From assembly GCA_046563655.1 (NCBI GenBank), contig CM102285.1:124001-188000 (forward strand): a DNA stretch of 64,000 nucleotides, given 5' to 3'. Both the position numbers and the translations under genes were made by a program. Within the stretch, counting starts at the first letter, position 1, and every line of letters starts with the position of its first letter. This DNA is from Yuukianura sp. NJ FZ-2021 (taxonomy: Eukaryota). Of this stretch, positions 231-60,398 are shown piece after piece. Below the pieces are notes generated by a model. That model had not been told where the DNA came from. It worked only from the letters and a program-made list of their open reading frames with translations, and searched no databases.

Positions 231-1162
231 TTTTGATAGGTTTGCGGAATTCCCGCTCTAAAAATTCAAAAATGCAGAAATGAGAATGTGAGGGAGCGGA
301 GAGGGGCGGAATTACGAGGGAAAAACCACTTGAAAAACTTAAAGCAAAAGACATATTTACGAGAACGGGGTGTGGGAAAATTTTAAATAATTATAATTAT
401 TTATAACAAAACGCTACCCAAAAAAACTATAAATAAGTTAATCCAGATAAGAAAATTTGCAATTTTCTGTGTTTGGCGGTTTTACTGCTTAAACCGGAGT
501 TTCCTTATTACTATCGTGCCGGATTTTGGAATATAATTATTAATAAACTCAAAGCTTAAGTTTTACATTACTATAACTCTGATAGTTAGAACCATACAAG
601 GTGTCGATTTTATTCTCGATTTTATATATAGAGATTTTTAATATGTTTAAAACTTTTATTTAAATTTCATTTATAACATTAAATTCAACATTTAAAACTA
701 TTTTAATACTAAACATTCTCTTATTACACCGCACCCTGGGAGGGGCGCATATTTTGTTGGAGTGGTGCGGTTAGAAAGTGCATATGTGCTTAGGCGTGCC
801 GCGTCCGTCCTTTTGTCTGCGTGCGGAAAAAGAGAAGCTAAAGACGGAAAAGAGGGCCGTGTGTGCAAAATGCAGCTGTGATCTCCGTCTCTTTCATTTT
901 CTTCGATGTTTTGAAAAATTGAAGCGTCTCTTGTTATTGTTTACTTCCGGTTTCACACAAACCTTGTCATTAATCAATCCAAGGTCGAAGGTCAAGGGTG
1001 AACCACAGGAGTAGAAGGTATTGTTTAGTTAAATTATAACAGATAATGGAATCATTCATTACTGCTATGTTTGTTTGTTTACAAATGGCGAAAAAAGTTG
1101 TTAATCGTCCTCATATTCGTTTTGTTTACGTTTTAGGTGTATCCAGCTTCCTCAGCAGTGCA

Positions 1163-3089
1163 ATGGAGATGCCAAAGATAGTGCTGGACAGGATACTGGT
1201 GTCACAAATTAGTAGCGAGGGTGTGGAGACCGTGACTCTGATAGAAACTGAAGCAGATGAAGTGCAGGAGTTTACCGAGGAAAGTACTGGCGATTTTGGG
1301 GAGCTTATTGCTGTCAATCCAGGAGAAGTCATCGAAGTCCATGAACATGAAGAAGAAGGAAACCAACAGGAAATCACAGATGAACTTCAACAGGAAGAGG
1401 AAATCACAGCTGAACTTCAACAGGAACAGGAAATCACAGATCAGCTTCAACAGGAGCAGGAAATCACAGATCAGCTTCAACAGGAACAGGAAATCACAGA
1501 CCACCTTCAACAGGAACAGGAAGAGCAGCACCTTGTCCAGGATTCTTTAGAAGTAATTGAACTGAGGAAGAGAGTTGAGCAATTAGAACAAGAAGTTGAC
1601 AATTTACATAATCAATTGAGACTCATGAAGAGGAAGATGCGCAGTTACGATCCAAATGCAGAGGGTTACCAAGAAGAACTGGAGAAAACTATTCTCAGAG
1701 TCCTGGATTCACAGCACTGGACAATGTCTAGACTAATACGTAAGAATATACAAAGGTTTCAACCAAGGTTACAACTTGTAACTTGGTCAATTTCAACTAG
1801 TTTTCATAATTTTTAACTTTATTTCTCTCATGCTCAGATCGAAGGCCTGGAAGACCTTCGAAGATAAGCAAGTTCAGTCCGGCACGGGGTCATCGAGGTC
1901 AAAAACGAACTGCAGAGTACATTTATTCTGAAGAAGAAGAAGACAAAGATGCTGGAATTGGAATGGTGGATGATGAATATGGTGACCCAACTTATCGATA
2001 TGGACACACCGATTCAGAAAATGTGAAGCCCAAACCCACTTCGAAAAGTCAACCACAAAGAAATAAAGCACCACCAACGAAAAAACGCGGTCGCGGAAGG
2101 CCTCCAGCCAATCAGCGACGAGTTGTCATTATCAAGAAAGTAGAACCAGCATCACGTGAGTGGAAATTAGTGAATTTGAAATTTCTAAAGTTCTTAGTTG
2201 TTATTGTAATTCACTAATTAGTTGAATTTCTGTTTAGCACCTCCGGAAACTGAATACGACGACGGTATAGAATACAGAGACTTTGGAGAATATGCACTAA
2301 CGGCTCCAGGTTTAGCCCCAATTTAGATTTCAAAATCAAGATTCTTGACTTTGTTTTAAAATCCTGCGTTTACTTTTTTGTTTAGAAAAACCGAAAGACA
2401 AAGTGATTCGTGCCGGAGATGTGTCGGTTATTCTGGAAGATGAGGAAGAGGAGCAACAACTGGAAAAGTATGATTATGTCAAGAGTCCAACCAAACGAAT
2501 ACGAAAAAGTGGCGAACCAAATAGTAGACCTAAAGTAGTCAAATGCAGGTAAGCTTTTTTTTTTTATAAATTAAATTTTTAAATTACGTTCATACTAAAA
2601 ATAAAAGCCTCTTATTACACTTTTTCAATATATTTCAACTTTCTGTATTTTTTTTTCTAAAATGTAGCCTGTGCCCAAAAATGTTCCGCGATCAACATGA
2701 CGTAAGTTTTTTCAAGCCAAATTCTGAAATTTTAGTAAAAGAAGTTCTAATTTAGAACTCATAAATTGGATATTCTGGTTTCATGTTGTATTTTTTTTAC
2801 ATGATTTCATAGGTGACAAGACACGAGAGAACACACACTGGTAAGTGGATAGTTGCGACTTCACTTCCATTTGCATTTGCGTAATGAAAAAGTTGAAGTC
2901 TTTTCTTTTTTTTTTGAAAAAATGAAATTTTTTGAAAAAATGTTTGCCAATTTTTTTTCTTGTGTAGGTGAGAAACCGTTCTTCTGCGACGTCTGTGGAC
3001 CGAACATGCGATTTACACAAACCTACCACCTTCAGAGGCACAAAACCAAGTATCACCTCAGCGAAATGGACTTGGTGGCCAACGCGTAA
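1163..3089 (+). CDS. AT-hook / coiled-coil / 2x C2H2 zinc-finger protein (~437 aa). Exons 1163-1739, 1838-2155, 2238-2309, 2386-2548, 2668-2701, 2813-2840, 2968-3089
   Basis: All junctions are GT-AG and in phase. RRPGRPSK and KRGRGRPP AT-hooks; coiled coil ELRKRVEQLEQEVDNLHNQL; CSLC..HERTH-TGEKPF-CDVC..HKTKYH fingers. Confidence 0.85.
1365..1525 (+). repeat. Coding 30-bp tandem repeat (~5 copies) encoding QQEQEITDQL
   Basis: CAACAGGAACAGGAAATCACAGATCAGCTT variants read directly in the sequence. Confidence 0.95.
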
Positions 3090-6114: not shown

Positions 6115-9100
6115 ATGAGTTCGGAAAGAGGGAGTGGTGCAGGTCATGAGCACCGACATTCCTCGAAATGGAGCCAAGAAGAGGCCATGACACGCTTGCT
6201 CATCAGCGACAACTCCGCAGATCCACGATTTGACCTCCGACATGAAGAAGTTTTGGCCTCAAATCTCATGAAACAACTAACACACAAGTACGGCACCAGA
6301 GGGAAGTCCGCCAAGTTTATTTTCATGCAAGCATTCCAAGAAAGTCAGCGTCCAGATACCAAGGGCGTTTTGGGCAAGTTGTCACGCCCTCAGGCGGAGC
6401 TCTGTGACTCCGAAGAGTCACGGACACACGGATTCATGGACGATTTCGAGCTGGAACTGGAGGATTCGGACGCAGTCGGAACCACTCGGCACGAATCCGA
6501 CCAAAGCAAGCCAGAGTCAAAACTCTTGGTAATTCAAAAATACAAGTTCAACTTTGGACTTTTATAGTTACGTTTGACTTTTCGTTACTTTTGACTTTAG
6601 ACTTTTAGTTTTAGTTTACTTCTGAATTTTGACTTTTAGTTACTTTTGACTTTTGACTATTGGCGTTTATTTACTTTTTGACTTTTAGTTATTTTTGACT
6701 TTTGACTATTGACGTTTAGTTACTTTTGACTTTTAGTTACTTTTGACTTTTAGTTACTTTTGACTATTGACGTTCAGTTACTGTTGACTTTTGACTTTTA
6801 GCTGTCAACTACTTTTTTTTTTGAAAAGCTTCCTTTTTTTTTAAACATTTTTTGTAGTCACGACCAGCAGCGATGGTAACACAGTCTCATTTTGTGTCAC
6901 GGTTGGAGGATCAAGTGAAGACGGAAGTTCAGCGAAACGGTTGTCCAGCGCCACAGTTCGAAATGTCCTGGCTCTACGAACAAATTCGGCGCGAAAATCC
7001 GAAAACCGGTACCGGTACCGGTGTTGCCGAAGTTCCGGTAGACACGTACTCCATCCGGAACGGTCAGGACGAACCTGAGGAGAAGTTGGTGGCACGACTC
7101 AAAATTTATCGTCGGGCCTTTTCAGCCCTAATTCTGCACTTTCAAGCTTTGCGACCACTTCTGGGCGACATCAAGCAGCAGTACGACGCAATGTTGTCGT
7201 TTAAGGATCAGCAAGTCGCTGAGGCGGCAAAAGTGAACCAAAACCTCCATCATCTTGAGCTCAATCTGGAACAGAAGATGACCTCGACCAAGTTCGAAGG
7301 ATTCCGCCAAGTGGCTGCTCTGGAAAAGCAGTGTTTACTGCTCATGCGTCATGTCGACAGACAGGATTTGGCCATGCGCACGATCACTGACATTTTAAAC
7401 AAGTACAAAATTCAAAATTTTACATTTTTGTTTTTCCAAAATTGACTTTTTTTGATAAATTTTTTAACTTTTTTTCGTTTTTTCAGACTGGAAACGTCAT
7501 TGAGCGAGGAGCATGACCTGCGTCGTGACTCGGAAGATCAGTGTAAATTGCTGCTGGTGGAGATCAACGCAATCAGAAACAAACTTGGCATGGGCCCTCG
7601 TCCGGAGGCAACCGAAGAGGCAACAATCCGGATTGAGGATGAAGATGACTTGGATGCATTTGAAATGGAGCCCATCACCACCGAAGATCCAATTTTGCTC
7701 CACCGTGCTCTCGAAATCGCACGCAAAAATTTGGCTGAAGCCAACGACCGGTATTTTCACTTTTTTCAAAACGACTTTTCAATTTCTAACTTTTTTTGCG
7801 ACTAAAAAGTTGTTGTTTTTTAGACTCACAGTTTTGGAAGAGGAATACGCCGATGTCGTTCCGCGTCACGAATTTGAGGAACTAAAAATCGCTATTGCAA
7901 ATATGGAGAATGAGCATGAGCAAATGACCGAAACTTACAAAAACGTCCAATCCGAAGTCTCTGGACTGCATAAGCAAATTGAAAAACTGACGGGAGCAAA
8001 AAACAAGTTGGAGGTTTGCCAAATTTTCTTAAAATTTGAAAAAAAATCCTTAAAAGTTCACCTTTTTTTTGGGGTTTTGTGTTTCTTTTTTTAGTTTTTG
8101 TGTTTCTTCTAACCTTTTTTCTTGAATTTTTTTTATTTTAGTTTTTTTTTCTCACTTTTTGTCTGTTTTTCAGGTTTTGGTAAGCGACATGCGCAAACGA
8201 CCCACTCCGAGACCAAGCTGGGACAAAGTAGCTGAGCACATTGAAGGTGGCCTGCCAAAGTGGAGATCTTTGATCGACGGAAAATCTTCTGCCCAGATTG
8301 TACCGATTTTGATTCAAGAACTTGCCGGTAGAAAACTCGTCGGTCCAGCAGAATTCATTCACCCTCTGGGCTCAGGGTCCCACGTCCCACCCTACTTACG
8401 GTGGGACAGTCAAATTCGACGCCGAAATTTTTCACGTCGCGACGCCCTCCTCGTGATCCAAGATATTTGGCAGTTGCGAACAGATCTAGTGGAACCCCCT
8501 CCACGGCACCGGTACGACGAAACGGCTGAAGAAGAAGAAGAAGAAGATGAAGACGAAACCGGTTTGTTCGGACCAAAATATGACGATACCGGTGCCGGGT
8601 TCGGACCGAAATATGACGATACCGGTTCAGGGTTCGGAGCGAACGACATGCTGACGGATCTTCCCGAAATCCTGCCTGTGACACCATTTGACGAATTTGT
8701 TACGGATTATTTCAATTCAAATTTTAGCATTCCCGCTATTCGGATGGAGTGGATTTACAATCTGATCGAAGCTTGCAAAAACTTGGGCCAAATTGAGCCC
8801 AAGTTGACACAATTCCTGGACATTTTGGAAGGCCGGACTGACGAAGGCGTTTATCATCTTTTCCGCGCCCAAGTCGCGAAACTTCGCGCCGCGGTGACTC
8901 AAATGACGGAAGAAACGAACCAATCACGAGACTCCATTCTCTTTGGCCACTTTGGTCAACTTTTACGTGAACTTTTTAGCGAGAAATCGCAAGAAGAGGT
9001 CAAGGGTCTCCTGGCAGCAGTTTCGCGCCAAACTGGAATTTACGCTGAAATGTCAGCGTTCAACTACGCGCCATTTTTTGAAATGACGGACGAAGGGCTC

Positions 9101-10234
9101 GTGGGGCCCTTCATTGTAGAATTTGCTAAGCAGTTTGAACTGGACCGACACAAATATGTTCAAGAAGTTTTGGCCGAACTTGTCAACGGGCTCGGGTTGA
9201 CACTCGGATCGGCGGATCTTGAAACCGATCCGGCTGGTGACACGGACGTGCCGATGCAAAAAGTTTTCTCAGCGTTTGTCACTGCCGATCCAACCATGCG
9301 TAAGAAAATCTTAAAAATTACACCTTTTTTTCAAGGTTCCTTGACAACGGAATTGTATTTCCTACAACAGGTTGTCCAATAACTCTGGGTTTTCAAAAAC
9401 CTTGCTTCAAACAACTTTTAGCACTAATTTTGTTACAATAAAAATGCGAAAAAAATTTTCATAGAAATGGAGGCGAAATTTAGCCCGTTTGGTTTAGAGG
9501 ATTTTGACAAAGAATCGAAAAACCCCGAGTGATTGGACAACCTGGTGTAGAAAAAATATTTTCTTTGTTTAGGACCTTGTTTTTTTTTTGGCATAAATTT
9601 TTAAATTTTTTTTAAATTGTTTTTTTTTTCAGCCGATGCCAAACTTGTAGCCGCCATCACTTGGATATTTCTTGGACATTCCATGCTCCCCGGTGGGCCT
9701 GCTCTGCGAGGCCTCCGATTGGTTGAATTTTTGCGCCAAGCTTCGCGATTGGCCGAGGCCACAGGGGAGGAGCCACAAGGGGAGGAGCTTCCTGTATCGG
9801 TACCGGATGATGACGAATTTGAAAAAGCAATTGCCGATGTTTTGAGTGACCAAGAAGCTTTGGAACTGAACGAACTGACTGGACCGGAACACAGACGCTG
9901 GCTGCAGAAAAAGAGAGTGACGAACCTTGGAACCGTCGTTCGGAGACTCAAAGGCGGAGCTTTTGTGCGCCACGGTCCACGGCACGACTTCGATCCTTCT
10001 GCGCAGGTCACTGGAGAAGGTCAAGGTCACGATGCTGAAAATGGACTAGACACAACTTCTGACGAAGCTGTTGGTGGACCAAGTCGCAAATCACGCAAAG
10101 GACAAAAGAAATCCGGTGAAAAGAAAAAGAAAGCCGCTCGAAGCGCTTCTGCTTCAAAAGCAAAATCTGCTAAGCGCGTAAAGTCAAAAACTGGAAAGAA
10201 AGACAAGAAAAAGAAAAAGAAAGCCAAAAAGTAA
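6115..10234 (+). CDS. TSNAXIP1: Translin-associated factor X-interacting protein 1-like (~1046 aa). Exons 6115-6528, 6858-7402, 7487-7750, 7824-8013, 8174-9299, 9633-10234
   Basis: RLKIYRRAFSALILHFQALRPLLGDIKQQYD N-domain, coiled coils, TPRPSW and LGSGSHVPPYLRW...FSRRDALLVIQDIW motifs; phases consistent; Lys-rich tail. Confidence 0.85.
6565..6800. repeat. Intronic low-complexity TTTTGAC / TTTTAGTTAC minisatellite
   Basis: Repeated 7-10 bp units fill TSNAXIP1 intron 1. Confidence 0.9.
9332..9579. mobile_element. MITE family A (P-element-like, CAAGG...CCTTG ends), copy in TSNAXIP1 intron 5
   Basis: About 60-bp imperfect TIR with CAGGTTGTCCAATAACTC / GAGTGATTGGACAACCTG; T-run on both flanks. 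Confidence 0.85.
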
Positions 10235-11910: not shown

Positions 11911-12837
11911 ATGGAGCAACAAAGGGAGTTTGTTTGGACAACTAGAGTTTATCGGTACTTTATCAGTTCTGAAAATCGAAGAATTCGCTGGACTGTGTGT
12001 TCCCTTATTGTGTTCCTTGTCCCTATCCTATTCTGCATTCATACATTGGTGGAGTTCGATACACCGGTGAAATCGGATAAACGGGTAAAATCCGAAAGTC
12101 CGTCGCAAAGTCCTTCTCCTTACTACAAAAGCTTCCTAGCTACTGCCATTCTGGTGTTGGGAGCCGTTGTTGCCTGTTTAATTGGAAGGCTGTTGGACGG
12201 TAAACGATTTTTTTTTCAATTTATATACTCCAATTTGCAATTAGGATAACAATCGTAAATCTGGTTAGGAGTAAGGTTCAGGGTGGCAATTGTAACACCC
12301 GGTTGTAACACCGGATTGTAAAACCCAATTGTAATACCCATATTAGTTGCTTTATATAGGCTAGGTTAGGCATTGGTTAAAGATTAATACGAGTTTGATT
12401 CAAGACTATGTAAAACTGTACAATCGGGTATTACTGCAACTAGGGTGCTAGTTAATTAGTTAGGGTGTACACATTACCACCGTCAACCTTACTCCAGCCT
12501 AAATCTCAATTTTGGAAATATTTTGTTTATGCTGCTTTCGAAAGTCGAGAACGTAAACGTGAGTTAATAAGAAAAAAAATTAACCGGGTAAAGTTACCTA
12601 TAATACATTAATGCGTTTTTTTTTTAACTTTCAGAGATATTTGTGCGCCCACCACCTGAGACATCCGCGCCGCCGCCTGTTCCGTCATTAGAAAGACCTC
12701 AAATCGTCCATGTCATTTGTCCAAGTGAGATTCACGACCATTACATTCTGTATTCGGACGGGACTCAGGAGGTGTATCCGGAAACCAGACCTCGAACAGT
12801 GCACGATGTTCTTGCCGAAAGGAGGAGAAGGAGGTAG
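11911..12837 (+). CDS. Orphan two-TM protein (~163 aa) with Pro-rich and Arg-rich tail. Exons 11911-12199, 12635-12837
   Basis: TM segments WTVCSLIVFLVPILFCIHTLV and FLATAILVLGAVVACLIG; a phase-1 splice gives LLD-E-IFVRPPPET..RRRRR*. Confidence 0.55.
12263..12499. mobile_element. MITE with GG-terminal TIRs and TAAATCT direct flanks
   Basis: GGTTAGGAGTAAGGTTCAGGGTGG vs CCACCGTCAACCTTACTCCAGCC; TAAATCT at 12256-12262 and 12500-12506; internal TTGTAACACCC repeats. Confidence 0.75.
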
Positions 12838-15800
12838 ACCAACATCAGGTCCCCGAAATTCTGGTGATGGACCTGCATTATCAACTCGTGCACGATCTGG
12901 ATCCAAGAACAGAGATACTACTCCATTTCCGTCATTAGGCTCATCCGGCTCATCATCATCAGTTACTTCCTCTACTAAGTCGGCAGTATCCGCCTCATCC
13001 CAACAATCATTGGATGGAACTCCATCAGGAACCAACAGAGACATCACAGTCCTTTACTCCCAAAAACAACGACAGTGCAGTCATACGGAACCCTGTGACT
13101 GTGCGGAAGTGGCCGAAAATAAGTTTTATTTTGTGACTCCGGACAGAAGAAGCGAAAAAGTGTCCACTCTCATGAAATTGGTCTTTGAGGTAAAGTTTAA
13201 TTTAAGTGTTTTAGTCATTAGTAATTGAGAATCTTAACTAATTGATTAAAATCACTTGTTGGTTTATACTAGGCCTGCGTCGATCGAGAAATCAGCGTGG
13301 TATGGATCACCGAACGTGAAGTTGTTCAACTCGACTTTGAGAAAGGAGTTATCTTTGTCTTTGATCACTTTACCGGTCCAGGATTCGCTCATCTCGAGGC
13401 CAAACTACTCAAGCATCAAAATTTCATGTCAGTCTCAGTATCTCAGTCCAGACTTGCATCGCTTTATCCACTTACCGACTAACCGCTTATATCTTATCCA
13501 TTTACCGACTGACTGCTTATCTCCTATCCACTTATCCAGTTTCCGCTTATCTATTTGCTAAATATGATACACAATATGATACGATATATTATATGTCACA
13601 TATTATATGATATGAACATTCATTATTTGCTGTTTTTAGGATCATTGGACCGAACGTGCTGAGATACATGTTTGAGCGCAACGTGCCAGAATTTTTCAAG
13701 TGCACGGGATTTCCTATCTACACCCTTGCCATGATGAGTGTCGTTGTGACCACTACAGGCATGCGGGAGGTGAGACTGCTTCAAAATTCAAAAAAAAAAA
13801 AATCACAGTTCTCATTCTGAAAATATTACTCATCGTGACAACATTTTGAGGTAACTTTTTTGTTCTAAATTCTACAGAATGACAGGAAGAAGGAGATGAT
13901 ATCCATGATCTACCGGATGGGTGGGAACTACGACGCAAGTTACACGAACGCCATCACACATGTCGTTGCTGCTTCAATTGACACACCTAAAGTGCGTGCT
14001 GCTGGTGCTCGGAAGATTCCAGTCATGACGCCCGAATGGGTCTTCGGAGTTTGGCAAAAGAGTCAACGCGAAATCGTCCACTCAACTGACCCAGTCTTTG
14101 CTACCTACACAATGAAGATTTTTGATGGTCTCAGTTTCACTTCATCACAAATCACTTCCAGAGAGAAACAGAAGTTGCAACAGCTGATCGAGCAGAACGG
14201 TAAGTGGTAATCGAAGTTTAAGTTAATTAACTTAATTAGATTAATCAATTGATCGATTATTTTTTGTCTTAAGGTGGGACCTACTCTCATGATTTGATTC
14301 GGAAATCGACCAAAGTGCTGATCATACCGAGAGGCGAAGGAGACAAGTTTCGTCATGCCAAGGGCTGGAAGATCCCTTGCATCCGTCCAGAATGGATCTC
14401 TGACTCATGTGATGCTGGATATGCTCTGGAAATGACCCAGTACACGGTGGACTCACTTGGCTATCCACTGTCTTCTACTCTCATCCATGGTGGCACACCT
14501 ACTAATGTCAATGGTGAGTACTTTTCAAAAAGAAATTCCATTTTTCAAAGAAATTAAAAATTTCGAATTTTATTTTTCAAAAATTTTGATTTTGGTGGTT
14601 CCGCAGACCCTCCGCCAATGAACGTCTCCTGTATCAGTGCCATTCCAATGAATTCCACTGAAATGTCACATGCCGTCAACAGTTCCTGTGTTTCTAATGA
14701 CTCCGTCGTGGTCAAAGCAGGCGCTGTCCCCCCGGAGCTCCAGCAAGTAGCCAAGCACATGCAAAACTTCTTCGAAGGAGTCAACTCTGATAGTAGTACT
14801 GACTTGGAAGCAAACGACAATGAAGAGGAAAAGGAGGAACAAGTTACCCGAATTCCTGCCAACATTCCGTCCACTCGTCCAGAGTCGTCCAATTCCGTCC
14901 TCGTCCTTCCAGATTTAGAAAAGGACGAAAGGAAAAGTGGACATGAGGAGGCAGGCAGACCCAATTCTGGATCAGCTGATCGGTCGGCCTCGGCATCTTC
15001 CGGAAATCAAGATCGGAGTGTGACGTCAGAAGGTCAATGTCATCAGGAAGATGTTCAAGTTGAAGATGATGAAGACGAAAACGAAACTGCGACGACTCCG
15101 GAAGCACCGCTGAGTGTTTTCAAAGATAAACGCTTCTTTTTGGCGCTAAATGACGATCCGGAGGCCAAGAAGAGAACGGTGGAAAGTGTGCTGGAGGTGG
15201 GTGGGATTGTGACGTACAAGTGGAGACAACAACAGTTTGATTTCATCATCACCACACCAATCCACTCCAAGGCAGAGTTTCTGAAATATCAACACTACAC
15301 GGAATACTGGCTGGTAAGACGAAACGTTTTTAAATACTTTCAAATCGGTTTTTAAAAACTAAAATCGTACTGAAAACGTAAAAACAGGAACTTCCCTTCC
15401 TCTCTTTTTAGAAGATAAGTGAATAATTTTTGTTACTTGTGCAGGAGGATTGTGCCTACGTCAATTCGACTCAATGTGAACCTGCTTTCCAGCACTTCCC
15501 ATTGTTAGAAACGGTGGAATGCAAAGGACTGTTGACTGGCTGTGTTATAGCAGTTAGTAGTTACACTTGGGCTGAAAGATCCTATCTCAACGCACTTGCT
15601 GCTTACATGGGGGCAATGTAAGAAATTCAAAAAAAAACTCTCTTTTAAAATTTTGTATTTTGAAATGTAATTTGAAAATAATTTGGAACTTTTCCTTTTT
15701 TCCGTAGCCCACAGGAAGTGTTCTCAAAGAAACAAACTTCTAAACGTGGAGAAACCATTTTAGCTGCAACTCACCTCGTTTCTAAAACTATGTGCAGCGA

Positions 15801-16632
15801 TAAGGCTGACGCTGCAGTACGCTGGAACCTCCCTGTCGTCACATGTGATTGGATTCTCAAATGTTATTCCACAAAGACACGTCTGGACACTGCCGCTTTC
15901 GTACCACTGGACAATCCCCGCAAAGACGAAGAGGAAAAGGAGAACGAAGACGACGTTTCAGTCCAGCATCTTCCAGAACCGCCAGCACTTCCGTCCAACA
16001 CATCTTCTGCTCAAGCCAGCATCAGCATCGACGCTCAACTTCAAAAGCTGCCTTCCAATCAACATGCCCGCCGTGCCTCTGATAGCGCTGATGCTGCCAG
16101 TGACAATATTAATTGCAACGGAGGAGGAATCAGTGCTCCTCAGACACCATTCTGTGCTCATCCGAGAATCGCTGCAATCGGGGGCGGAGCCAGCGCTGCA
16201 ATTGGCGGCGGAGCCAGTGCGAAGAAGCTGTCATTTGGACTGGACAGTCCCACTGGGACACAAGAGCGACCAGCAGAATCTCCTGTGTACGAGTACATTT
16301 ATCCGTCGATGGATCAAATGCTGGATGATGCTGTAGCAGCGCGAGCCATGATACCCCCGCCACCGATGCTGGACATCCCGACTCCTGAAACTCCGCAACT
16401 CCGGAGACAGTGGCACGAGCACATGCGCAATCACTGGCTCAATGGTCGCCGTACTTTCGATGATTCCCTGAGCAGCGCCAACGAGGAGGAGGAGCCAAGT
16501 CCACCGGAAACCGTGGACGACGCTGTAACTGCGGCGAAACCAAAATCACGGCGCTTGATGCTGCCAAAGAAGAATGCTAGTGCCACGGTCCTGCCCGGAA
16601 TCGACTCCAAGCGTTCAAAAAGAACAGACTGA
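12806..16632 (+). CDS. TOPBP1: Shortened TopBP1/mus101/Cut5-like BRCT scaffold (~1011 aa; alternative in-frame ATG at 12710). Exons 12806-13189, 13273-13427, 13640-13769, 13878-14199, 14274-14513, 14607-15313, 15445-15617, 15708-16632
   Basis: BRCT0 (FDHFTGPGFAHL..IIGP), BRCT1 (RMGGNY..THVVA..PVMTPEWV), BRCT2 (EQNGGTY..GDKFRHAKGWKIPCIRPEWI), BRCT4-5 (LTGCVIAVSSY..ERSYL..THLV..DKADAAVRWNLPVVTCDWI); all in phase. Confidence 0.9.
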
Positions 16633-17257
16633 TTCATTTACCTTAAGTAAAACTCGACAATATTTGGATAATGTAAAGTTAACGTAATTACTTTTTTTAC
16701 CTTTTCTTAATATTCTGCTAATTACTTCGATGCGCCATGTTGCCTTAAATTTGAGTTCCTACAAATGTACAAATTGGCCTTTATGAATTTAAAAATGAAT
16801 GACTTTCGCTCAAATCTTCCCAACATTCAAAAGAATGCCATAACATTGAATAATTTTCACCATTGTGATTTCCTACTTGAATGTCCAATTTTTGATTCAC
16901 TTTTACAATTCAAATTCTCAACTCGAAAGCCAGTTGAATAAAATCAATTTTTTACATTTTGAATTTCAGTATTCAATTTTTGAACATTTAATTTTCAGTT
17001 TTCTTTTCAATTTTTCTGTTTCTCACTCTAGTATCCATTGATTTTATCTAAAGCCAAATTAAAAAAAATGACATTTGTAACGTTTTTGTATGGTATTCTG
17101 AATTGTTTAGGCGTTGTGTATTTAATCAATTCAAACCCCGCGGGCAAAGCACCGCCCCTTTGGATTCATCCATTTCTTCCACTGGACATCCGGCTGTGGA
17201 CAAAATGACGAAAAAGTGGAATAGAATGGATAGAATTCGTTGTCGAATGCTGCCTCC

Positions 17258-17539
17258 CAAGGTTCCTTGACAACCATTTAGATTTAGTATATAGGTTGCG
17301 TAATACCTTAGTTGTTTACGAAAAAATTAGAATAACAAAAAAAAAAAACGGAGCACCAAAGGTACCAATTTTTAAAAATATAATTTTTGGTACTAATTTC
17401 CTATGCAAAATATATAAAAATCATTTATAATGCTAGGGTTACCATAACCTGAATTGCAGCTGAACTTTTTTTTGTGAAATCTAAAAAAAACACGAGTTAT
17501 TACGCAACCTATTAAACAAAATCCAGTCAACAAACCTTG
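17258..17539. mobile_element. MITE family A copy with perfect 8-bp TSD CTGCCTCC
   Basis: CAAGGTTCCTTGACAAC...AACCTTG; CTGCCTCC at 17250-17257 and 17540-17547. Confidence 0.9.
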
Positions 17540-20500
17540 CTGCCTCCTCCATACGCTATTATTTCTGCAGCATGCCAATCACCCACTTTTCCAACTTTTG
17601 GCCTTGTTTCCAGCGATATTATTTTCCCACTAAAAATGTCGTCAAAGGCTAACGATTTCTTGGTTTTCAATTTGATACAAAAGGAATGTTGGAAATGACA
17701 GAAAGACAGAAGAAGAAAAGATCACAGAGCTTCCATGTCTCTCTTCAAATTCAAACTTTACCGCTTTCTCCCAAAATAAAGTTTTTTGATGTTCCATTTC
17801 AACTTTTTTTTGAAACTTCTAAGAACGACACAATTTTTCCAAAAGATCATCCCCGTTTTGGGTCTCAAAAACGGCTCATCTTCTTAATATTTCCTAACGA
17901 CAGCCTTTGTTTGCAGTTTGAAAGAAACCAAAAAGAAATTTTGAAAGTTCGCGCCGAGTGAAATTCTTGAAAATTGGCACTATTTTTGTAACTTGAAAAA
18001 ATGGCGGTTTCTTTTGAATTTCCTTTGAACAAACCCTTATCATTCATTTCACCTCTTTCATCGCTGATCTTGTTGTTTAGAACAAAATTCCTGTTTGAAA
18101 AGCTCCTTTTTAAAAAATTAGTTTTTAAACTAAACCAAAGTTTTCTAAATTTACTTACTCGATTGAGTGCGGTGATCATCTGCAGGCTGTATGAGTTTCT
18201 GCGTTTTTCTGAAATTTTGAAAAACAGACTCAGAAAAACAAAAACAAACTTTTAATTTCCTAAATTTTTAATTTTTTAAAAAGTATTTTTGCCAGCGTCC
18301 AACCTAACGTTTACAAACAAACTTTTCGAACTTCCTAAAAACCTTGTTTGACTTAAAATTTGCTCCGGGCAAAACACAGAATTAGGTTAATTAGGTTAAG
18401 TATGCGTTAGGCTAACTTATTAAATTTTAACCCTGACACAAAAATTCAAAAATAAACTCACTTTCAAAAACAAATTCTATTTTTTTGTGTTTCATTTCAG
18501 AAAAAGCTGCTTTCGTCTTAAATTTTTCCATTTTTGAAAATTAGACCACCTTTTTACTTAGAATTTGACTTTGTTTTGCCAAACTTGACCTCTTTTCAAA
18601 ATTAGCTACGTTTTTCTCTCAAAATGTGATATTTTTTTTGGTAAAATTTGACTTTTTTTTCGAAGTTGACATTCGTTTTATATTTGCTTTTGATTGAAAT
18701 GTAAGAATCCTTTCGTGAGATTTAATTAACCCAAATGCTTTTCCGGGCAACTTGGAGCACTTTTCCAATTTTTTCGTTCTTTTCACATTTTTTCGCGCTT
18801 TTCATCTTTCTTTCATATAATGAAAGTGAGTGGAGGTGACGTTGTCACCGCCTGGGCGACATCCTACACAAAAGATGACACGGCGACATATGGGCACTCG
18901 ACCATCTTCAGATTCCATTTACAACTCATTTGATGAGTCCATTAGCCCAAATGAGATTCGGAATTGAGATGATGATATTTTTCGAAAAGAAAAAAAAACG
19001 AACAAAATTTTGAATTTTTGCCCTCCCGCCCAAAAATTTCACTTTGACTTAATTAATCTTTTCCAAAGTTTGCACAAAGCTCGTCGCTGACCTCCAGGCA
19101 ACAGTTTAGCACCGCCGTGTTTTCCAGCGGAGGCGGTAACTCTTAATTTCCTCTTCATTTTGAATTTGAACAAGGAAATTTAGTACCCGCGGGAAAAACT
19201 TTCAAATTTAAACATACACAGTGTTTGTCTCACACTTAAGCTTCAGCAGAATAATTAACATGACCTTTTGACCTTTTCAAAACCAAAAGGCGGTTAGTAA
19301 GGTCAAAGTAGCAAAGTCACATGATTTTCAAAATGGCCGGCGAAAAATGCTAAATAGCAGCATTTCTAAAGTCAGGTTCAAAATTTCCGTCTAAATCTTT
19401 AAATCGTTTTTCGTTTCATAAGAAATGCACAATAAAAGAAGAAACTTTTTTTTTTTAAAAACACACTTTTTTGTATTCCCGAGAAATCTCGGCTTTTTAG
19501 GCTTTTTTAAATTCGGCCTTTTTATTTTCTGCTCACAAAGTTTTAGAGGGATTTGCTCGATAAAAGGAAAAGTTTTAAAGGAAAAACTCCCAAAAATATT
19601 TTTAGTTTCTTCAAAAATTTATAGAATTTTGAAAGTCTTTTTACTTTTGTTTGTGGTATTGATTCATAACATTTTGACTTGAGGGAGTGTTCAAAAAGTA
19701 CTTTTCATTGTTACTCTACTTTTTGGAAAATCTTTTTTGAAAAGTGCATTTGACTTATTTGGTTGTGAAGTTGATAACTTTTGGGCTAAGAAGAATATGA
19801 AATGGTTTGTGAATATTTGAAGAGGGAAACAGATGCTGCTGTGGATTTTAGATGATTATGAACAGACTTGTGCACCGACGTTCAATTTTTGTGAAAGTTC
19901 GAACAGACTTGTGCACCGACGTTGAAAGATTTCAGGGAAGCGGAGAGTTGTGTGCATGTGACAAAGGAAGACAAAAGTGTTGACAGGCCATGCAAAATCC
20001 AATGCCTTCTGCATCCGACTTCCACGGAGAAGGTGCTGGAACTCCTCTTTTCAACCAATTCACACTTCACATTCCAAGGAAAACGGTCCAAGTTGGATCA
20101 TCTCTTGCAGGGTTAGCCAGTAACACCAAAAGCATTGACCCAGCCTGGGTCAAACGCCTTTTTAACAGGTCAACGTCCAAAAATCACTCTTTGATACAAT
20201 TCACTTTTAACTCAATTCATTCTCCTACTATGCGCAGGTTTTTCAGAATAAATGTTTTACAAATTATATTCTAATTGAGTGTCTCTTTTCATAAAAAAAA
20301 ATCACAATTTACAATTTGGTAAAATTTACAATTACAATTTGTGTGTGTGTGATTGTATTGTAAATATTATGATTTGGCAGGGTGGAACTCTATGCTCTTA
20401 GAGTGTATCTCCCTGCTAAATACTAACATATTAAGTTGAAATACTTTAGTCAACTTCAATTTACCCACAAAGTAAAACCAGTTTAAGTTACATACTTGTA

Positions 20501-21102
20501 TTTGAATAACCCACGGGTTGACCTGCACCCATCTCCGTTGACCTGCAGGGTACCGCTTAACCCTGCCTCTTTTCCTCACTCCCCCGTCTCCTTGCGGATT
20601 AAGGAGAGATGGAGAACAGTTTGTTTCAGTTCGAATTTTGGCAACTCAAGGAAAAGCGTTAGTCGGGGTAAAAAGCCAGTGAAAGTCTTCTCTCCCTCTC
20701 ATTCACTCTCCGCCTCTCGCCAATCAACATCCTCCTCAACTGCTTACAAATTTTAAAAAGTCTGCTAAAAAGTACTTTATTGCACCAAAAGTAAACAAGA
20801 CTTTTCAATTTGGCGCCTCATTTGAACCTTCCTAATTAATTTCATCCCCTCTTCAAACACACGCAACGTACACCATAAAACGGACACTAATCAAAGAGAA
20901 AGAGAAAACTCTTTTCTCTTTTCGGCGTCTCCTTTTCTCTACTCAGCATCAAACCAAAAAAACTTCAATTTGTAACAACAGCAGTTGAGAAAGTCAAAGC
21001 TTTGACCAAGAACAGCAAATTCCTTTCAAATTTTGCCCAATTTCACACGCGCCATTCTCAAACTACAGGACAAGGACAACAGAACAAATTGAAGTCATTG
21101 CC

Positions 21103-21150
21103 AGCCAATCAGAAGAGGCCATAAAAGAATTCAACCAATCAGAAGACGCC
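21103..21150 (+). promoter_or_regulatory. Tandem CCAAT boxes (CCAATCAGAAGA x2, 30 bp apart) upstream of the GPCR ATG
   Basis: CCAAT at 21105 and 21135 in an NF-Y-like context; function inferred. Confidence 0.35.
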
Positions 21151-21412
21151 GTTTGCAAATCACGAAGAAGCCGTTTGAAATCGTTGCAAATCAAGAATAC
21201 ACCAATCCAAAAATAAATTTCAAGGCGGAATTTTCAAAAATTCAAAGTCGCAAAACGTTTCTACTCAACCTTCAACGTTGTTTTTTTGTTGCTGAGAAGT
21301 TGAGAAGACGCAGGCTTCCAGAACATTCTTTTGAAAATTGTTTTTTCTAAACAAGTCTTGTTTGAAAAAGTCCATTTTTCAAAAAAAAGTTGAAAAGCGT
21401 GAGACTAAGAAG

Positions 21413-24400
21413 ATGGATGACATTGGGGAGATTAGTTATCAAGAACTGGGTAGCGTTTCTATTTTGGAAAATTGCAACAGCACAGTACTGCTGTCGAGTG
21501 AAACTGAAAATTTAACATGTCTCAACGCAACTGCAAAAAACGATACAGACACAAGAAGTCTCTTTGATTTCTACAGGGTGAGTCACTTTTTAACTTCACT
21601 TTTTTGCTATCTTAGCCTAATTAGATTTAGTTAACCTAATTGAGTCGTTAAACCAGAATGTGGTTTGGTAATTAGCAGAATGAAAATCAAAAATTATCAC
21701 AATTTATTTTTCAGATCTTAGTTCTTCAGGCTAAAATTTTTGCGGAGTTGATTTATGAACAAAATTAAAAATTTGAACTTTTTTGAAAATTTGGAAAGCT
21801 CCTAAATTTTGAACAAGGTTTAGAACAAGATATTGCTTAATTTATTTTAAAAAAAAAACAGTGTGAGGAGGCGGAGGTTTTCGAATTTTGTAAAAAATTC
21901 TAGGTTTTCACAAAATTTTGGAAATTTTTGCTGACGTAAGACAAAATGTAGTCTAGACAGACTCATTTCATGAAATTTTTTTTCAATCACCAACAGTATC
22001 GAATTTCTGTTTGAACATGGCGGGACTTTTTTTTTAGAAAACGAGTGGAAGTTAGCGGTTTCCGCTTACAAGTGGTTAATTGACAACGTGCAAACACAGC
22101 AAAAAGTGACCAAACAAAGAGGTCAAAGAGGTCAAACAAGTCAAAAAACGAAAGCAAAATGAAAATTCAAATCTTGACGGTCTTAAATTTTAGACTTTCC
22201 CTTTTAGACAAAATGTTAAAAAGAACGTGTCTAGTTTTGAATTTTGAGTCTTATGAGTTTCTTTGAATGAAAACGCAGCAAAAGTTCTAATCCATTCACT
22301 AAAATGTTTAAGTGCAAAACTCTAAACTTAAAAATGCTCGCTTCAAATTTATGTTTTAAAAAACTGTCTAAATCAAAAAAATCTAAATTTTTTGTTCGCG
22401 AGTTACTGGAGCCGAAAATCTTTTTCCATTTCCTCAAACTTTACCGGAACCGGAAACAAACCGAAACTTTCACACCTCAGACGGTAATTTCCGGTGCTCA
22501 AAGGAACTCTAACGTGTTTTTGTCACGCGCCATTTTCAAATTTCGGTCCGTTTCTCAATTATGACTAATTTTGCGCCATTTTCAAAACTCCAAGGTTTAA
22601 ACCAACTTTTATGTGAGGTTGGTTAGGTTTAGTGTGAGGTTTGGAATACAAAATGTGAATGAACTTTGTTGAAATGCATAGAATTTGAATTTCTTCGTGG
22701 GAAAATCAATTTTATGAGGGCCATTTACAAAAGTGGACACTTTTACTTAATTACCATAAGAAACACAGCTTTAAAAGCGTCCCCAGCTTTCTATTTTCTA
22801 AGAAAACAAAGGCTACTTTCTCCTTATCACAAAACTATGCATGCATGTTCCAAAAAAAAAATTTTTTTTTTAGAAAACCTTGTTTTTCTACAAAAAAAAA
22901 ACACGCAAACTGGCTTTTTTTTTAAAGAAAAGACAAAAATCCGCTTTCAATTTCTCATTTTCCTTTCTTAGGAATTGCAAAAACAAAAATAAACTTTTCC
23001 TCTGTAGATGAAAAACTTTCATTTTCTTTTTCTAAAAAACTGTTTTTTAAATGTACATTTAGAACTTTGATTAAAATTTCACAAAAAAAGCCAAAATGTA
23101 AGAAAAAGAAAGAATATTTTTTTTTGCCTTTGAAAGAAAATTAAAATTGGGCAAGAAAAGGTATGGGTAGGTCAAAAATTGAAAAACAGAAATGCGGAAA
23201 ATTAGAAAATTCAAAGACATTTTTCCTTCTTTTTGAACTTTTAGCTTATTGAGTAAAAAAAAGCAAACTGTTTTCTCTTTTTTGGTAAAATTGGAAATTG
23301 AAAAGTGTAAATTTGTAGTTTCTGGCGAAATTTAGGAATTCATTCCCCTGTGTGCGATTTTGTTTTCCATTTGGGAATTGTGGATCTGATGGGACATAAA
23401 TTAAGTGTTGTAATTACAATTTCCACTGGAATGGAGATTGTTGTGTCTCCTTTGCGGGAATAAGTGGATTGAGACACAAACAGAAGAAAAGTTTAGTAAA
23501 AAAAGAGACAAGTTTAAAAAAGGAATTTAAAAAAGAGCGGGAAATTTAAACGGCACTTAACCCAAAATGGAGCGAGAGAACGATTGCTCAGTGGGCTTGA
23601 CAGCAGAAACGGCCTCTTTTCTTATCACTTAACAAATAGCAACTGCCTCTCACTAATTCATTCCTTCCGACACTCAGCACTAACCGATTACTACCATTTC
23701 TAATCGATTTTAATCATAGATTTTATAAATATATGATATTACTCAATTAAATTGCTAGTAAATACTGCTACCAACCTAAGTATTCAGGACGTTGAGCTTT
23801 AAAAAGGTGATTTTAATCGATGAAAAATGTAAAAACTGCAAAAATTTTGACATTTCCATTTATGGATTCAAAAGATTTGTCCTTATTTAGAAAAAGATGG
23901 AACGGAATTTAAAAAAAAACGATTTTGAAAAATTTGACACAAGAAAAATTGTGATTTGAGTCTTTGTTTGGACTTTTTCTTTTGCATTGCAGCAATTTAG
24001 CACACTTTTTGTTTGAAGTCGCAAATTCGTTAACTTTTACGTTTTTTTGTTTCAGTTTCAGTTTGACTTACTTTCGTCGATAGTTTCTATTATGGTGGCC
24101 TACCCTTAGCCTAACTCCAACTTAACCTTAACCTAATGTTAGCCTAACCTTAGCCTAACTTGAAGACTAACCTAATTGTGGTTTGAGTGGTGAGATTAGA
24201 GATAGATTAGGTCCAGTGGAAGATCATTCAATTAAGCCCAGGCTTACTTTAGTACTTCTTCGGAAAAAGTAGAGATTATTCTGCTCACAAGGGAGTTGGT
24301 CAAGAGAAAACAAAACAATTTACCGTAATGCTGCAAGGGAAAGTGACAATCGATTCCACACACACGTTTCATCTAATAGTTCTCCAGAGGCCACCAGGTC

Positions 24401-27400
24401 ATTGGGTCAACAGGAATTGCATCAACACTAATTTGCTCAACTCCCAACACCTCAACTTCAAAAACTACCCCAGACTACGCTAGTGGAAAAACCACCAACA
24501 ATCAATTGATCAACTGGAGAACATCCATTTCGAACCAATTCCAAGTTGATCTATTTCGAACCAATTTTTCATTTGACATTATTTTTCCCAATTTCCCCGT
24601 TGATTTTATTTCGAACCAATTCAAAAGTTGATGAATCTTGGTTCGACCAATTTCGGCAAAAGTTGATGCATTTGAGTTGGACCAATTTCTAAGTTGCGCT
24701 ACATGAGTTGATCCAATTTGTGTTGAACCAATGGCGCGCTGGTGTCCATACCCTCTAAAGACGTTAACTTTTAAAGTAAAAGCTGAAGCGGGAGGGCAGT
24801 TTCTTAGAATAGACTTTTCCTTTTGAGCTCAATTGAAATGGGGCCCTTAGTTCAGATGGGCACTCACAAACAAATTACTTGACACCGAAGACGTCACACT
24901 GAACAACGAAAACAATGGCCAAGATTACAGAGTTTTTAGCATTTAAGAGTCACGAATGCAACTTCATGCGCACCAAACTTATTCATTTTCAAAATTTAAG
25001 CTCTCTTCACAAATCCTCTTTTCTGCTTCTCTAACGTGAGACTTAATCCACTAACACCTCTTCTTTTCGAAATTTCATGTCGAAACCAAAATTTTTGAAA
25101 AAAATGAGCCTTTTTTTCTCAAAACACTGCGTGTGAACTGTAAAGCATATGAAACTTAGGACTCTGAAAACCAAAATTTTTGTAGCCAGTAATTGGTCTT
25201 TTTTTGAAACAAAAGTTTTCTAATCTAGCAGTAGTTTTTCGTTCTTCAAAAATTCCAACAACTAGGAATTTCTTGTTTCAATTTTTTGGGAAAACTTTCT
25301 TTTTTCAACTTTTTTTTTCAAAATGGCTAATGAGAACTGTAAGCTTTTACTTTAACCCGCAAAAATTACTTTTCAACGGACAGCGAAAGTTTCAAAAAAG
25401 TGTTTTCATGTCATTCGTGCCAAAAGGTGCATTTTTTTTTTCAAAAAACTAACTTTTCTAACTCTTAAAAAGAAAATGAGGATTTCGACTTTGACTTAGC
25501 GGGAGTTTTTGAAATTTCGTGAGTCTTTGTTCATTTTCTGAGAAGACGGAAAATATGAAGGAGATGAGCAGATGTCGTCCACTGAAAAGAATAAAATGAA
25601 ATTCCATTTCCAGAAAATGAAAAAAGAAAGAAATTTTCCCAAAAAACGAAAAATTTCGGGAAAAGAAGAGCGAACGTTGCGGTCGGGTGTCATTAATCTC
25701 ATAAGAGTCCCATTGTTCCTCTTGTTCTGGAAACTTGACCCCTGGAGTGACCTATCTAGTGACATTTTCAGAAAATAAAATTTTCAAAAAAAAATGACCG
25801 AGTATGATAAATTTTGATTTTGGAAGATTGGTTTGTGTTCTAACATTGTCCTCTGAGTGTCAGTAATTGAACTTGTCACAAAAACGGATTCAATTTTTCT
25901 CTATACTTAACTCTTTTTGTCTAAAAAAATGATTGATGATGATAAAACTTCGACATGCGGGAAAACCAATAAAAAAAAACTACATTTGAAAAAACGTACA
26001 CGTACACGTCAACACGTCCAAAAAAGTTCAACAAACACGTTTCATCAACAACGCATTTCATCCACATTTCCAAGATATCTTTTCAATGCTTCTTAAAAGT
26101 TAAACGGCTTTTGCCCATGATAAAGCCAAAAAACCGATATTTCTGAGCAAAACCGCTTTTAACTTGAGAAGACCCGTTTTAACATGAAATGAACCTGATT
26201 TTCCTCTGGATAAATATCAAGGTTCCTTGACAACCGAATTGTACGATAGGTTGTCTAATAACTCGTGGTTTGCAAAAATTTTGTTTAAAATAATTTTCCC
26301 TCTCAATTTTTCCTCAATTCCAATTGCTTGACTTGAAAATAATTACCATAAAATTTTTCAACAAAATAAAAAAGATCGAGTTATTGGACAACCTGGTGCA
26401 GAAAAACATTTTCTTACAGACCTTGATAAATCTGATTTTTGACTAAATAAAACCGGTTTTATCCGGCTTTGACATGGACTGGCTTTATTCACGGTGAAAA
26501 GTAGACTAAATTTTGTTCTCTTTTTTCAAAGTATCGTTTGGATTTGCGATTGTGGCCAAAAGAAGATCACTTTTTAGCTAGCAGGGAAGCTGGACACTGG
26601 TGGCGCTCTTTTTTTTTGAAAGATTGAAAGCCCGCCAAGGTTTGAATCCAATTTAAAGACGAAATGGACTGAACAGCAGGAGAAAATTGTCTTTTTGGAA
26701 TTGAAGAGGGAAGAGGTGAAAGAGGACTTCAATTTTCCTCTTGGACCAAATCAAGATGAAGAGATAGAATTGGCACAAGATTTCAAATTGGGAGGTCGTT
26801 CCCGCTTTTTTCAAATTCGACTTGTCTGTTTTCTTGGTAAAAGTAAGGAATGATGTCATAAGATGAACACATTTTGCCAAGAAAACATTACGCGAAGAGA
26901 AAGGAAAAATTAGAGTGAAATTGTGTCCACTTTGGGTGACAGGTCGTGTGGCGCTTAATTTAAAAACAAATTGTTTCATCACCATCATATTTTTCCAATT
27001 TCCCTCCAATTTTCTCTTTTTCTCTAACCTAATCAAAAACCTACTCAAAACAAAACCTAACATAAAAGCAGTTAGAGCAGAAGTTAGAGCTTAGCTAGAA
27101 AATCAAATCAGACAAAAAAAAACGAACGCCGAATCTAATTCTTCTTGCATCCGTATGTCAGCTTCCTCGTTATTTTTTTCAATTCTAATAGAAAGAAAAC
27201 TCAATTTTTTAAAAAATTTTTAGTTGTTGTTTTCCTGTTTTTAAATTTTGAAATTTCCCCTTAAGAGATTGTAGTAATTTCCGAATTTCAAATTGAAATC
27301 TTTTTCCAAAATTCTTCCTTAAAAAAGTTTTCACTCTTTTTCTTACTTTTCGAAAAAGTCATTTTTGATTTTTATGGTTCATAACTCGAGCCGTGCCGAA

Positions 27401-59640: not shown

Positions 59641-60072
59641 TCCTTGTTGCGTCTAAAAATTTAGAAAAACAAACGTTTTTCAGTCGATTCGACGATTGTT
59701 AAAAGTTAGACTTAGAAAAATTAGAACTTAGTCCAATTACCTGGTTATCGCACAAGGATTTAGTGGCTCCAAAGTAGAAAACAAAAAGCTTAACTGATTA
59801 ATTAACTTGTCAATTAATCTGTAACTGTTAAGTAATTACATTTTATGAGAGAGAGAAGAGATCCACTGTATGAAAGTTGAAATGTAAACAACGATGTCCT
59901 TGTAGAGCATACTGCAGTATTACCCAATCACTCTCATTTTGTAATTTGAGCAGATATGGGCACATTGATAAATTATTGAATTAAAGTGAATAAATTTATA
60001 AATAAAATGAAATATTTAAATACTTAAATTTTTCATTTTAATTTAAAGTATTTAAATTAAAATGTAAATTAC

Positions 60073-60216
60073 CAAGGGCCGGATAAGAAAATAAATTTTT
60101 TTTAAAACTTTCCCGCCTTTAAAAACCTGTAAAAACTTTAAAATCTTATAAATACAATTTTTATTTTCGAATTCGAACTATTACGCAACCTGTTTAAAGG
60201 AATTCAACAGACCTTG
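60073..60216. mobile_element. Short degenerate MITE family A-related copy
   Basis: CAAGGGCCGGATAAG start and TATTACGCAACCTG..GACCTTG end, as in the 17258 copy; no TSD visible. Confidence 0.5.
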
Positions 60217-60398
60217 GGATTTTCTAAGACAATGTAAAAAAAAAAAAAACACTTTAGAAATAAATATACAAAAAAAAAATGGAATTAACTCGTGAAATCG
60301 TTGTAGCTCCGATTACATTTCAGAATATTTACAATTGACTTGCTGTAATAGTAGGAGTATTATCTACTTACAACGAATCCTAGTGAGCCTAACATTTT

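Follow-up and report, generated by a model that had tools for sequence, protein, structure and literature searches.

A Divergent TopBP1-Type Gene of Yuukianura sp. NJ FZ-2021, Modelled with BRCT0-1-2 and BRCT4-5 and without a Recognizable BRCT3

Can an animal TopBP1 dispense with BRCT3, a domain that DONSON/DNSN-1 docks on and that replication initiation is described as requiring in both Xenopus and Caenorhabditis elegans (PMC7615117, PMC10801813)? The question is raised by a gene at 12806-16632 (+ strand) of a 64,000-nucleotide (nt) stretch of Yuukianura sp. NJ FZ-2021 (assembly GCA_046563655.1, contig CM102285.1, positions 124,001 to 188,000; here, the window). An original prediction had described it as a minimal TopBP1 with BRCT0-1-2 and BRCT4-5 only. 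We observed its gene structure and domain content, intact phosphate-binding pockets, and a coding tail whose frame stays open; nothing else BRCT-like was seen in the window. The locus probably encodes a complete, functional scaffold of the TopBP1/Mus101/Cut5/Dpb11 family in a divergent animal, cut back to BRCT0-1-2 and BRCT4-5 with an acidic, disordered linker between them and a disordered tail behind; in reading it so, we infer its ligands, orthology, single-copy status, and true 3′ end.

Eight exons (Table 1) join into a spliced protein of 1011 amino acids (aa), with the frame open over 1011 codons from an ATG at 12806 to a stop codon at 16630-16632. All seven introns are GT..AG and 74 to 213 nt long, and this splice model agrees with the anatomy and coordinates first proposed. 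The frame of exon 6 has no stops, versus 9 and 16 in the other two frames. The exon 2 donor (AT/GTCAGT) is weaker than the other donors, and the resulting junction sequence aligns with homologues. The N-terminal extension in exon 1 has no homologue: homologues start at about model aa 99, and the BRCT0 match begins at aa 102. The same open reading frame (ORF) holds a second in-frame ATG some 96 nt further upstream, so the predicted start at 12806 is not fixed. The first AATAAA past the stop codon, expected near 16938, was found at 16937. The window contains no N (G+C content, 31 to 45%), and there is therefore no assembly gap past 16.6 kb, where a break was looked for. Antisense ORFs over the gene (− strand, 12688-13053 and 14554-15006) were interpreted as side effects of the low-complexity coding sequence.

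For the domain map, the model was aligned with 14 full-length homologues, including a 1519-aa TopBP1 of vertebrate type; the alignment was cut into 12 segments, and a hidden Markov model (HMM) was built from each (B6 on 7 usable rows; BRCT6 is missing in 7/14 homologues). The best non-overlapping matches were BRCT0 at aa 102-194 (54 bits), BRCT1 at aa 207-297 (80 bits), BRCT2 at aa 300-391 (102 bits), BRCT4 at aa 582-665 (18.4 bits), and BRCT5 at aa 675-769 (96 bits). The first of these, a BRCT0 ahead of BRCT1, is an animal-type TOPBP1 feature. On the spliced protein, no segment HMM could be placed in aa 392-581 or aa 776-1011, and those for BRCT3, BRCT6, BRCT7, and BRCT8 gave only weaker cross-hits on the retained BRCTs. 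Searched in six frames, exon 5 matched the B2 HMM at 3.2e-20. The retained domains scored within the range of homologues left out of HMM building (e.g., P0063, 33/96/96/27/78) and therefore look to be under constraint.

BRCT1, BRCT2, and BRCT5 are described as the BRCTs of this region with the phosphate-binding motif (PMC8651625), and all three carry its triplet here: T219/K227/K261 in BRCT1, S313/K320/K355 in BRCT2, and S684/R691/K736 in BRCT5. All nine residues sit in columns that are T/S, R/K, and K in 14/14 homologues. Membership in the scaffold family was judged on two features, and both were found: a tandem BRCT1-BRCT2 with the triplet in each domain and a second BRCT pair with the triplet in its second domain, BRCT5. 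Both the domain set and the retained pocket residues named in the original prediction were thus upheld, the former by the BRCT HMM scan and by Pfam and PDB matches, the latter by conserved columns of the 14 homologues.

Single exons searched against Pfam matched BRCT/PTCB-BRCT on exons 4, 5, and 8 (E values, 6e-14 to 8e-7), with BRCT at 6.3e-14 and PTCB-BRCT at 8.2e-12 on exon 4 and PTCB-BRCT at 4.6e-10 on exon 5. The TopBP1_BRCT0 match on exon 2 (E value, 0.004) was below the gathering score, and exon 6 matched BRCT_2 weakly (E value, 0.043). In PDB sequence searches, exon 4 matched TopBP1 BRCT0-2 entries (6hm5, 2.3e-11) and also Rad4 and ECT2 structures, the start of exon 8 matched TopBP1 BRCT4/5 entries (8ok2, 8.8e-9; 3uen, 2.1e-8), and exon 6 alone matched none. 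An ECT2 identity was considered, since ECT2 (BRCT0-1-2 plus DH-PH RhoGEF) shares the N-terminal triple BRCT (4n40, 2.1e-9; 6l30, 7.7e-9), and was rejected: there is no DH/PH domain, and a TopBP1-type BRCT4-5 pair is present instead.

Exon 8 was compared with 1.84 billion representative proteins and returned 68 matches (the library), each over BRCT5 only; none of them was related to its 236-aa tail. Against full-length proteins of the TopBP1 type, the spliced protein aligned over two colinear blocks, at model aa ~100-450 (BRCT0-2) and aa ~560-810 (BRCT4-5), and a local phmmer search against the 68 proteins gave E values down to 1.6e-78. Identity to the 14 full-length homologues was 26 to 37% over BRCT0-2 and 24 to 33% over BRCT4-5. 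A search with exon 4 for longer homologous proteins yielded 105 word-sharing candidates, none at an E value of ≤1e-5. In the ESM Atlas, exon 8 reached generic BRCT clusters only, with scores (0.78 to 0.82) under the level that counts; Atlas BRCT clusters were of 663 to 1044 aa in Streptophyta and 479 to 660 aa in Ascomycota. Rfam gave no matches over the whole window.

BRCT3 was present in 14/14 aligned full-length homologues, and the model was gapped there. Between BRCT2 and BRCT4 (aa 392-581), no BRCT HMM matched at an E value of ≤10; the B3 HMM, run over all six frames of the window, gave no match apart from those on other BRCTs, nor any in 14.6-15.1 kb, where one was sought. The linker is, as originally noted, acidic and of low complexity: over its 190 aa, the hydrophobic fraction is 0.22, and the best 85-aa window reaches 0.31, versus 0.33 to 0.44 in the five BRCTs. 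Only a 93-nt intron separates exon 5 from exon 6, and an overlooked BRCT3 exon would have no space there. A possible vestige of the first BRCT3 strand at aa 456-474, placed there by both MAFFT and a position-specific scoring matrix, was discarded, as 2568/20000 shuffles scored as high.

BRCT2 followed by BRCT5 occurs in 40 of the 68 library proteins, with two BRCTs between them in 31, three in 1, one in 7, and none in 1. Where one BRCT intervenes, it is BRCT3-type in five of the seven and lies at BRCT3's position in a sixth. Only two library proteins, P0008 (416 aa) and the odd P0041, might resemble the model. Duplications of BRCT5 or the BRCT4-5 block were seen in P0001 and P0034 (P0001 repeats ~70 aa verbatim) and probably reflect artefacts of assembly or gene modelling in those records. 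Judged by these sequences, a missing BRCT3 is rare, and it is unusual in an otherwise animal-type, BRCT0-bearing protein. Literature searches, which were not designed to prove absence, found no title or abstract describing an animal TopBP1 without BRCT3.

Does the protein end where the model ends? Behind BRCT5, the tail frame has no stops in 236 codons, versus 14 and 6 in the other two, and only 3/20000 shuffles reached such an open frame; for these reasons, the tail is regarded as coding. It carries 6 S/T-P sites and a basic C-terminal stretch, and several homologues also end basic. An in-frame 24-nt tandem duplication at 16170-16217 (+), encoding a repeated Gly/Ala-rich octapeptide, is a sign of low-complexity turnover.

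The tail contains a single aromatic-acidic triplet, F954-D-D. An HMM of the ATR-activation domain (AAD; W-D/E-D/E-P in 12/14 homologues) found no match in it, yeast-type AADs being too short to be excluded in this way. Similarly, an HMM of the GINI core (x-[ILV]-[ILV]-x-Q-Y type, from 14 homologues), which is a short motif, did not score positively anywhere in the linker; this core is described as barely conserved with yeast (PMC10899662). HMMs of conserved post-BRCT5 motifs had no positive match in the model, and pairings that MAFFT made in the tail (e.g., APQTPF under TPETPY) were set aside as unsupported by them. In Dpb11 and Rad4, the AAD is reported to be short, centred on an aromatic residue, and located in the disordered tail that follows the final BRCT pair (PMC3386226). 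The suggestion that the protein may not activate ATR hence does not follow from an unrecognised AAD, as yeast AADs, according to that source, sit in just such tails.

The window was searched for the remaining domains in six frames. No B6 match was found in protein or window beyond cross-hits on BRCT1/2/5, and no B7 or B8 match was found in either, the BRCT7/BRCT8 pair being present in 13/14 homologues. Against 3199 six-frame ORFs (≥12 aa), the best matches of the 12 HMMs outside the gene had independent E values (iE) of 0.13 and 0.15. Searches by tblastn with the 68 homologues produced 581 high-scoring segment pairs, 377 inside the gene; the best of the 204 outside had an E value of 0.03. Between 16633 and 45400, there are 230 ORFs of ≥48 aa (118 + strand, 112 − strand). 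Pfam was run on all 118 + strand ORFs, from the stop to 45.4 kb, with no BRCT-family match, and on the − strand as far as 34.8 kb (61 ORFs), with no credible match. These scans agree with the claim that no further BRCT exons precede the downstream G-protein-coupled receptor (GPCR) gene. One ORF piece at 22016-22117 (+), 5.4 kb past the stop, resembles a BRCT C-terminal helix (...W-K-L-A-V-...-W-L-I-D type); 9/68 homologues matched it in tblastn (E values, 0.3 to 7), the B5 HMM did so at iE 0.15, and Pfam did not. As a BRCT exon it was rejected, being at chance level (about 2 such matches are expected with 12 HMMs, and Pfam was empty), although it might conceivably descend from a former 3′ exon, now decayed.

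With vertebrate TOPBP1 (BRCT0-8, GINI region, AAD), the gene shares the BRCT0-1-2 module and the BRCT4-5 pair in the same order, the triplets in BRCT1/BRCT2/BRCT5, a short conserved segment after BRCT2, and the best PDB matches. Unlike vertebrate TOPBP1, it has no BRCT3, BRCT6, or BRCT7/8, no recognisable W-D/E-D/E-P AAD motif, and no detectable GINI-core helix (of the DEDLLSQY type given in PMC10899662); it adds a 100-aa N-terminal extension and has 1011 aa versus ~1500. The closest layout is that of yeast Dpb11 and Rad4(Cut5), with two phospho-binding BRCT modules, a disordered C-terminal tail, and no BRCT3/BRCT6/BRCT7/8, and exon 4 also matches the Rad4 structure 4bmc (1.3e-9). However, the protein has BRCT0, which is absent from Rad4 as described in PMC8651625, and its sequence is closest to animal-type library proteins, not to yeast; on these two grounds, we regard the reduction as secondary and not ancestral.

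Reduced BRCT numbers are not new among animals. The statement that metazoan TOPBP1 has BRCT0-8 is over-general: a table in PMC1899495 counts 6 BRCTs in C. elegans, 7 in Drosophila, and 8 in vertebrates; C. elegans MUS-101 is given "6 BRCT repeats" in PMC7771872; and fewer BRCTs in invertebrate orthologues are thus already on record (PMC1899495, PMC7771872, PMC4426357). C. elegans MUS-101 and Drosophila Mus101 share with our gene a BRCT number below that of vertebrates, and the C-terminal part is variable in animals. MUS-101, however, is described as keeping BRCT3 (residues 434-561), which binds DNSN-1/DONSON (PMC7615117), whereas none was found here. Short TopBP1-like library proteins (BRCT0/1-5, 650 to 1190 aa), some of which are probably fragments, likewise have no BRCT after BRCT5, but in most of them BRCT2 and BRCT4 still flank a BRCT3-type domain. 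Since 17/40 library proteins with BRCT2...BRCT5 end in this way, missing BRCT6-8 is common among the homologues compared and hence not the unusual feature here.

What would such a protein do? By homology, it would be a phosphorylation-dependent adaptor, with the BRCT1/BRCT2 pockets binding CDK-phosphorylated Treslin/Sld3-type and Rad9-tail-type ligands (as described for homologues in PMC8651625), BRCT5 a third phospho-ligand, and BRCT4 offering a surface to GINS (Psf1). At origins of replication and sites of damage, it would bridge these partners in a manner close to that of yeast Dpb11/Rad4. DONSON would not dock through BRCT3, and BRCT7/8 ligands would not be bound via known elements. The BRCT4 GINS surface is reported to be able to support origin firing in Xenopus extract despite mutation of the GINI core (PMC10899662), and the BRCT3-DONSON contact is reported as essential in Xenopus and used in C. 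elegans (PMC7615117, PMC10801813). A further-reaching version, which we put forward only tentatively, is that this is the animal's sole TopBP1, that the BRCT3-DONSON link, on which CMG helicase assembly depends in frogs and worms, was lost along with the GINI core, BRCT6-8, and canonical AAD, and that initiation became yeast-like (BRCT1/2 with Treslin, BRCT4/5 with GINS); DONSON might then have disappeared or dock at another site, and ATR activation might fall to a different factor or to a cryptic tail motif (e.g., F954-D-D).

Several points weigh against a complete and functional reduced scaffold. BRCT4 scored weakly (18.4 bits; Pfam E value, 0.043), and there is no close relative in the libraries (top identity, 34%, over BRCT5 only). 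The start, the exon 2 donor (AT/GTCAGT), and most of all the 3′ end are predicted. Short exons were detected with limited sensitivity: exon 6's genuine piece of BRCT4 reached only 8.7 bits (iE 0.38) in six frames, and a divergent BRCT6 or BRCT8 exon could therefore escape the scan. Introns of about 6.8 kb occur in the neighbouring GPCR gene, so intron size is no bar to distant 3′ exons. A second copy or a separate BRCT7/8-AAD gene could also lie beyond the 64-kb window. This last point bears on whether the gene is a lineage-specific paralog, a sub-functionalised or tissue-specific phospho-adaptor, while a canonical TopBP1 (BRCT3, BRCT6-8, AAD) resides elsewhere in the genome. Strong divergence (24 to 37% identity to the 14 homologues over the retained domains) and the unusual 100-aa N-terminal extension speak for such a copy, which we nonetheless hold to be unlikely: the divergence can be explained by generally fast evolution, as the neighbours are also weak versus Pfam, the retained domains score like ordinary orthologues, and the 64-kb window has no second TopBP1-like sequence.

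The limited sensitivity of the exon-level scan, the several-kb introns of the adjacent GPCR gene, and the weak motif at 22016-22117 (+) would fit an incomplete gene model, in which exons for BRCT6, the AAD, and BRCT7/8 follow a long intron or fall beyond the window, or the C-terminal half now forms a gene of its own. Yet exon 8 stays open for 236 codons past BRCT5 to a basic end like that of several homologues, with an AATAAA 305 nt later, all seven introns of the gene are ≤213 nt, and neither the 47 kb downstream nor the 12 kb upstream holds a BRCT match with iE <0.1 on either strand; the 22-kb motif is at chance level, and the same-strand GPCR gene has its first recognisable exon at ~34.7 kb. 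We therefore judge a truncated model improbable. A decaying, truncated pseudogene copy of TopBP1, which the loss of several domains, the low-complexity linker and tail, and the tail micro-duplication could bring to mind, is very hard to reconcile with eight in-frame exons with canonical splice sites, all nine pocket residues conserved, domain scores in the orthologue range, a tail kept open in only 3/20000 shuffles, and a duplication (24 nt) that is itself in frame.

The surroundings of the gene are given in Table 1. The GPCR gene lies downstream on the same strand; its first recognisable exon is at ~34.7 kb, about 10 kb upstream of where the gene was originally placed, and the apparently empty stretch is therefore ~18 kb and not ~29 kb. 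This stretch (16633-34700) is AT-rich (32 to 40% G+C), with small tandem repeats only, such as a 45/91-nt array at 30885-31193, and has no Pfam-recognisable ORF on either strand. The upstream neighbour resembles TSNAXIP1, of a cilium- or sperm-associated gene family, which speaks against a nematode origin; the neighbouring genes as a whole suggest an animal genome. Neighbours are weakly similar to their Pfam families (DnaJ, 5e-5; guanido kinase, 1.8e-8), which suggests a fast-evolving lineage.

Table 1. Exons of the TopBP1-type gene and other features located in the window
Feature	Position	Strand	Residues	Content and evidence
Exon 1	12806..13189	+	aa 1-128	Ser-rich N-terminal extension of ~100 aa, then BRCT0 start
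Exon 2	13273..13427	+	aa 129-179	BRCT0 core; Pfam TopBP1_BRCT0 E 0.004; six-frame B0 HMM iE 2.7e-7
Exon 3	13640..13769	+	aa 180-223	BRCT0 end and BRCT1 first strand, pocket Thr219; splice model, alignment, pocket column
Exon 4	13878..14199	+	aa 224-330	Remaining BRCT1 (K227, K261) and BRCT2 start (S313, K320)
Exon 5	14274..14513	+	aa 331-410	Remaining BRCT2 (K355) and start of post-BRCT2 linker
Exon 6	14607..15313	+	aa 411-646	Acidic low-complexity linker to aa 581, at the expected place of BRCT3 and the GINI region, then first two thirds of BRCT4
Exon 7	15445..15617	+	aa 647-703	BRCT4 end and BRCT5 start (S684, R691); six-frame B5 HMM iE 2.6e-6
Exon 8	15708..16632	+	aa 704-1011 and stop	Remaining BRCT5 (K736), then 236-aa disordered tail
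Candidate poly(A) signal	16937..16942	+		First AATAAA past stop (305 nt downstream); pattern scan
Rhodopsin-type (7tm_1) GPCR	34703-34918, 41755-41985, 42057-42203, 42256-42501, 45374-45721	+		At least 5 exons; introns up to ~6.8 kb
TSNAXIP1-like upstream neighbour	6858-10234	+		N-terminal domain E 9e-11; long acidic and basic low-complexity exons
ORF with imperfect acidic repeats	1040-1816	+		QQEQEITDQL-type repeats; no Pfam family
DnaJ	46422-47742	−		J domain and DnaJ_C
ATP:guanido phosphotransferase fragment	50495-51046	−		
Tetraspanin, weak	52890-53258	−		
C2H2 zinc-finger genes	57579-63622	−		

To our knowledge, fungi lack both BRCT3 and DONSON. In 2023, BRCT3 of TopBP1 was reported as the dock for DONSON/DNSN-1, with DONSON delivering GINS to MCM in helicase assembly, a step described as essential in Xenopus extracts (PMC7615117, PMC10801813). 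Because the domain missing here is this dock, the case is of interest beyond what was first seen in it. Should a canonical copy exist elsewhere in the genome, the gene would be just a divergent paralog, and no rewiring of replication initiation would be implied. If true, a secondary loss of BRCT3 from an animal TopBP1 would be a natural experiment, asking whether BRCT3 and DONSON were lost together and how the pre-loading complex was rewired, and evolution would here have defined a minimal animal TopBP1, BRCT0-1-2 plus BRCT4-5.

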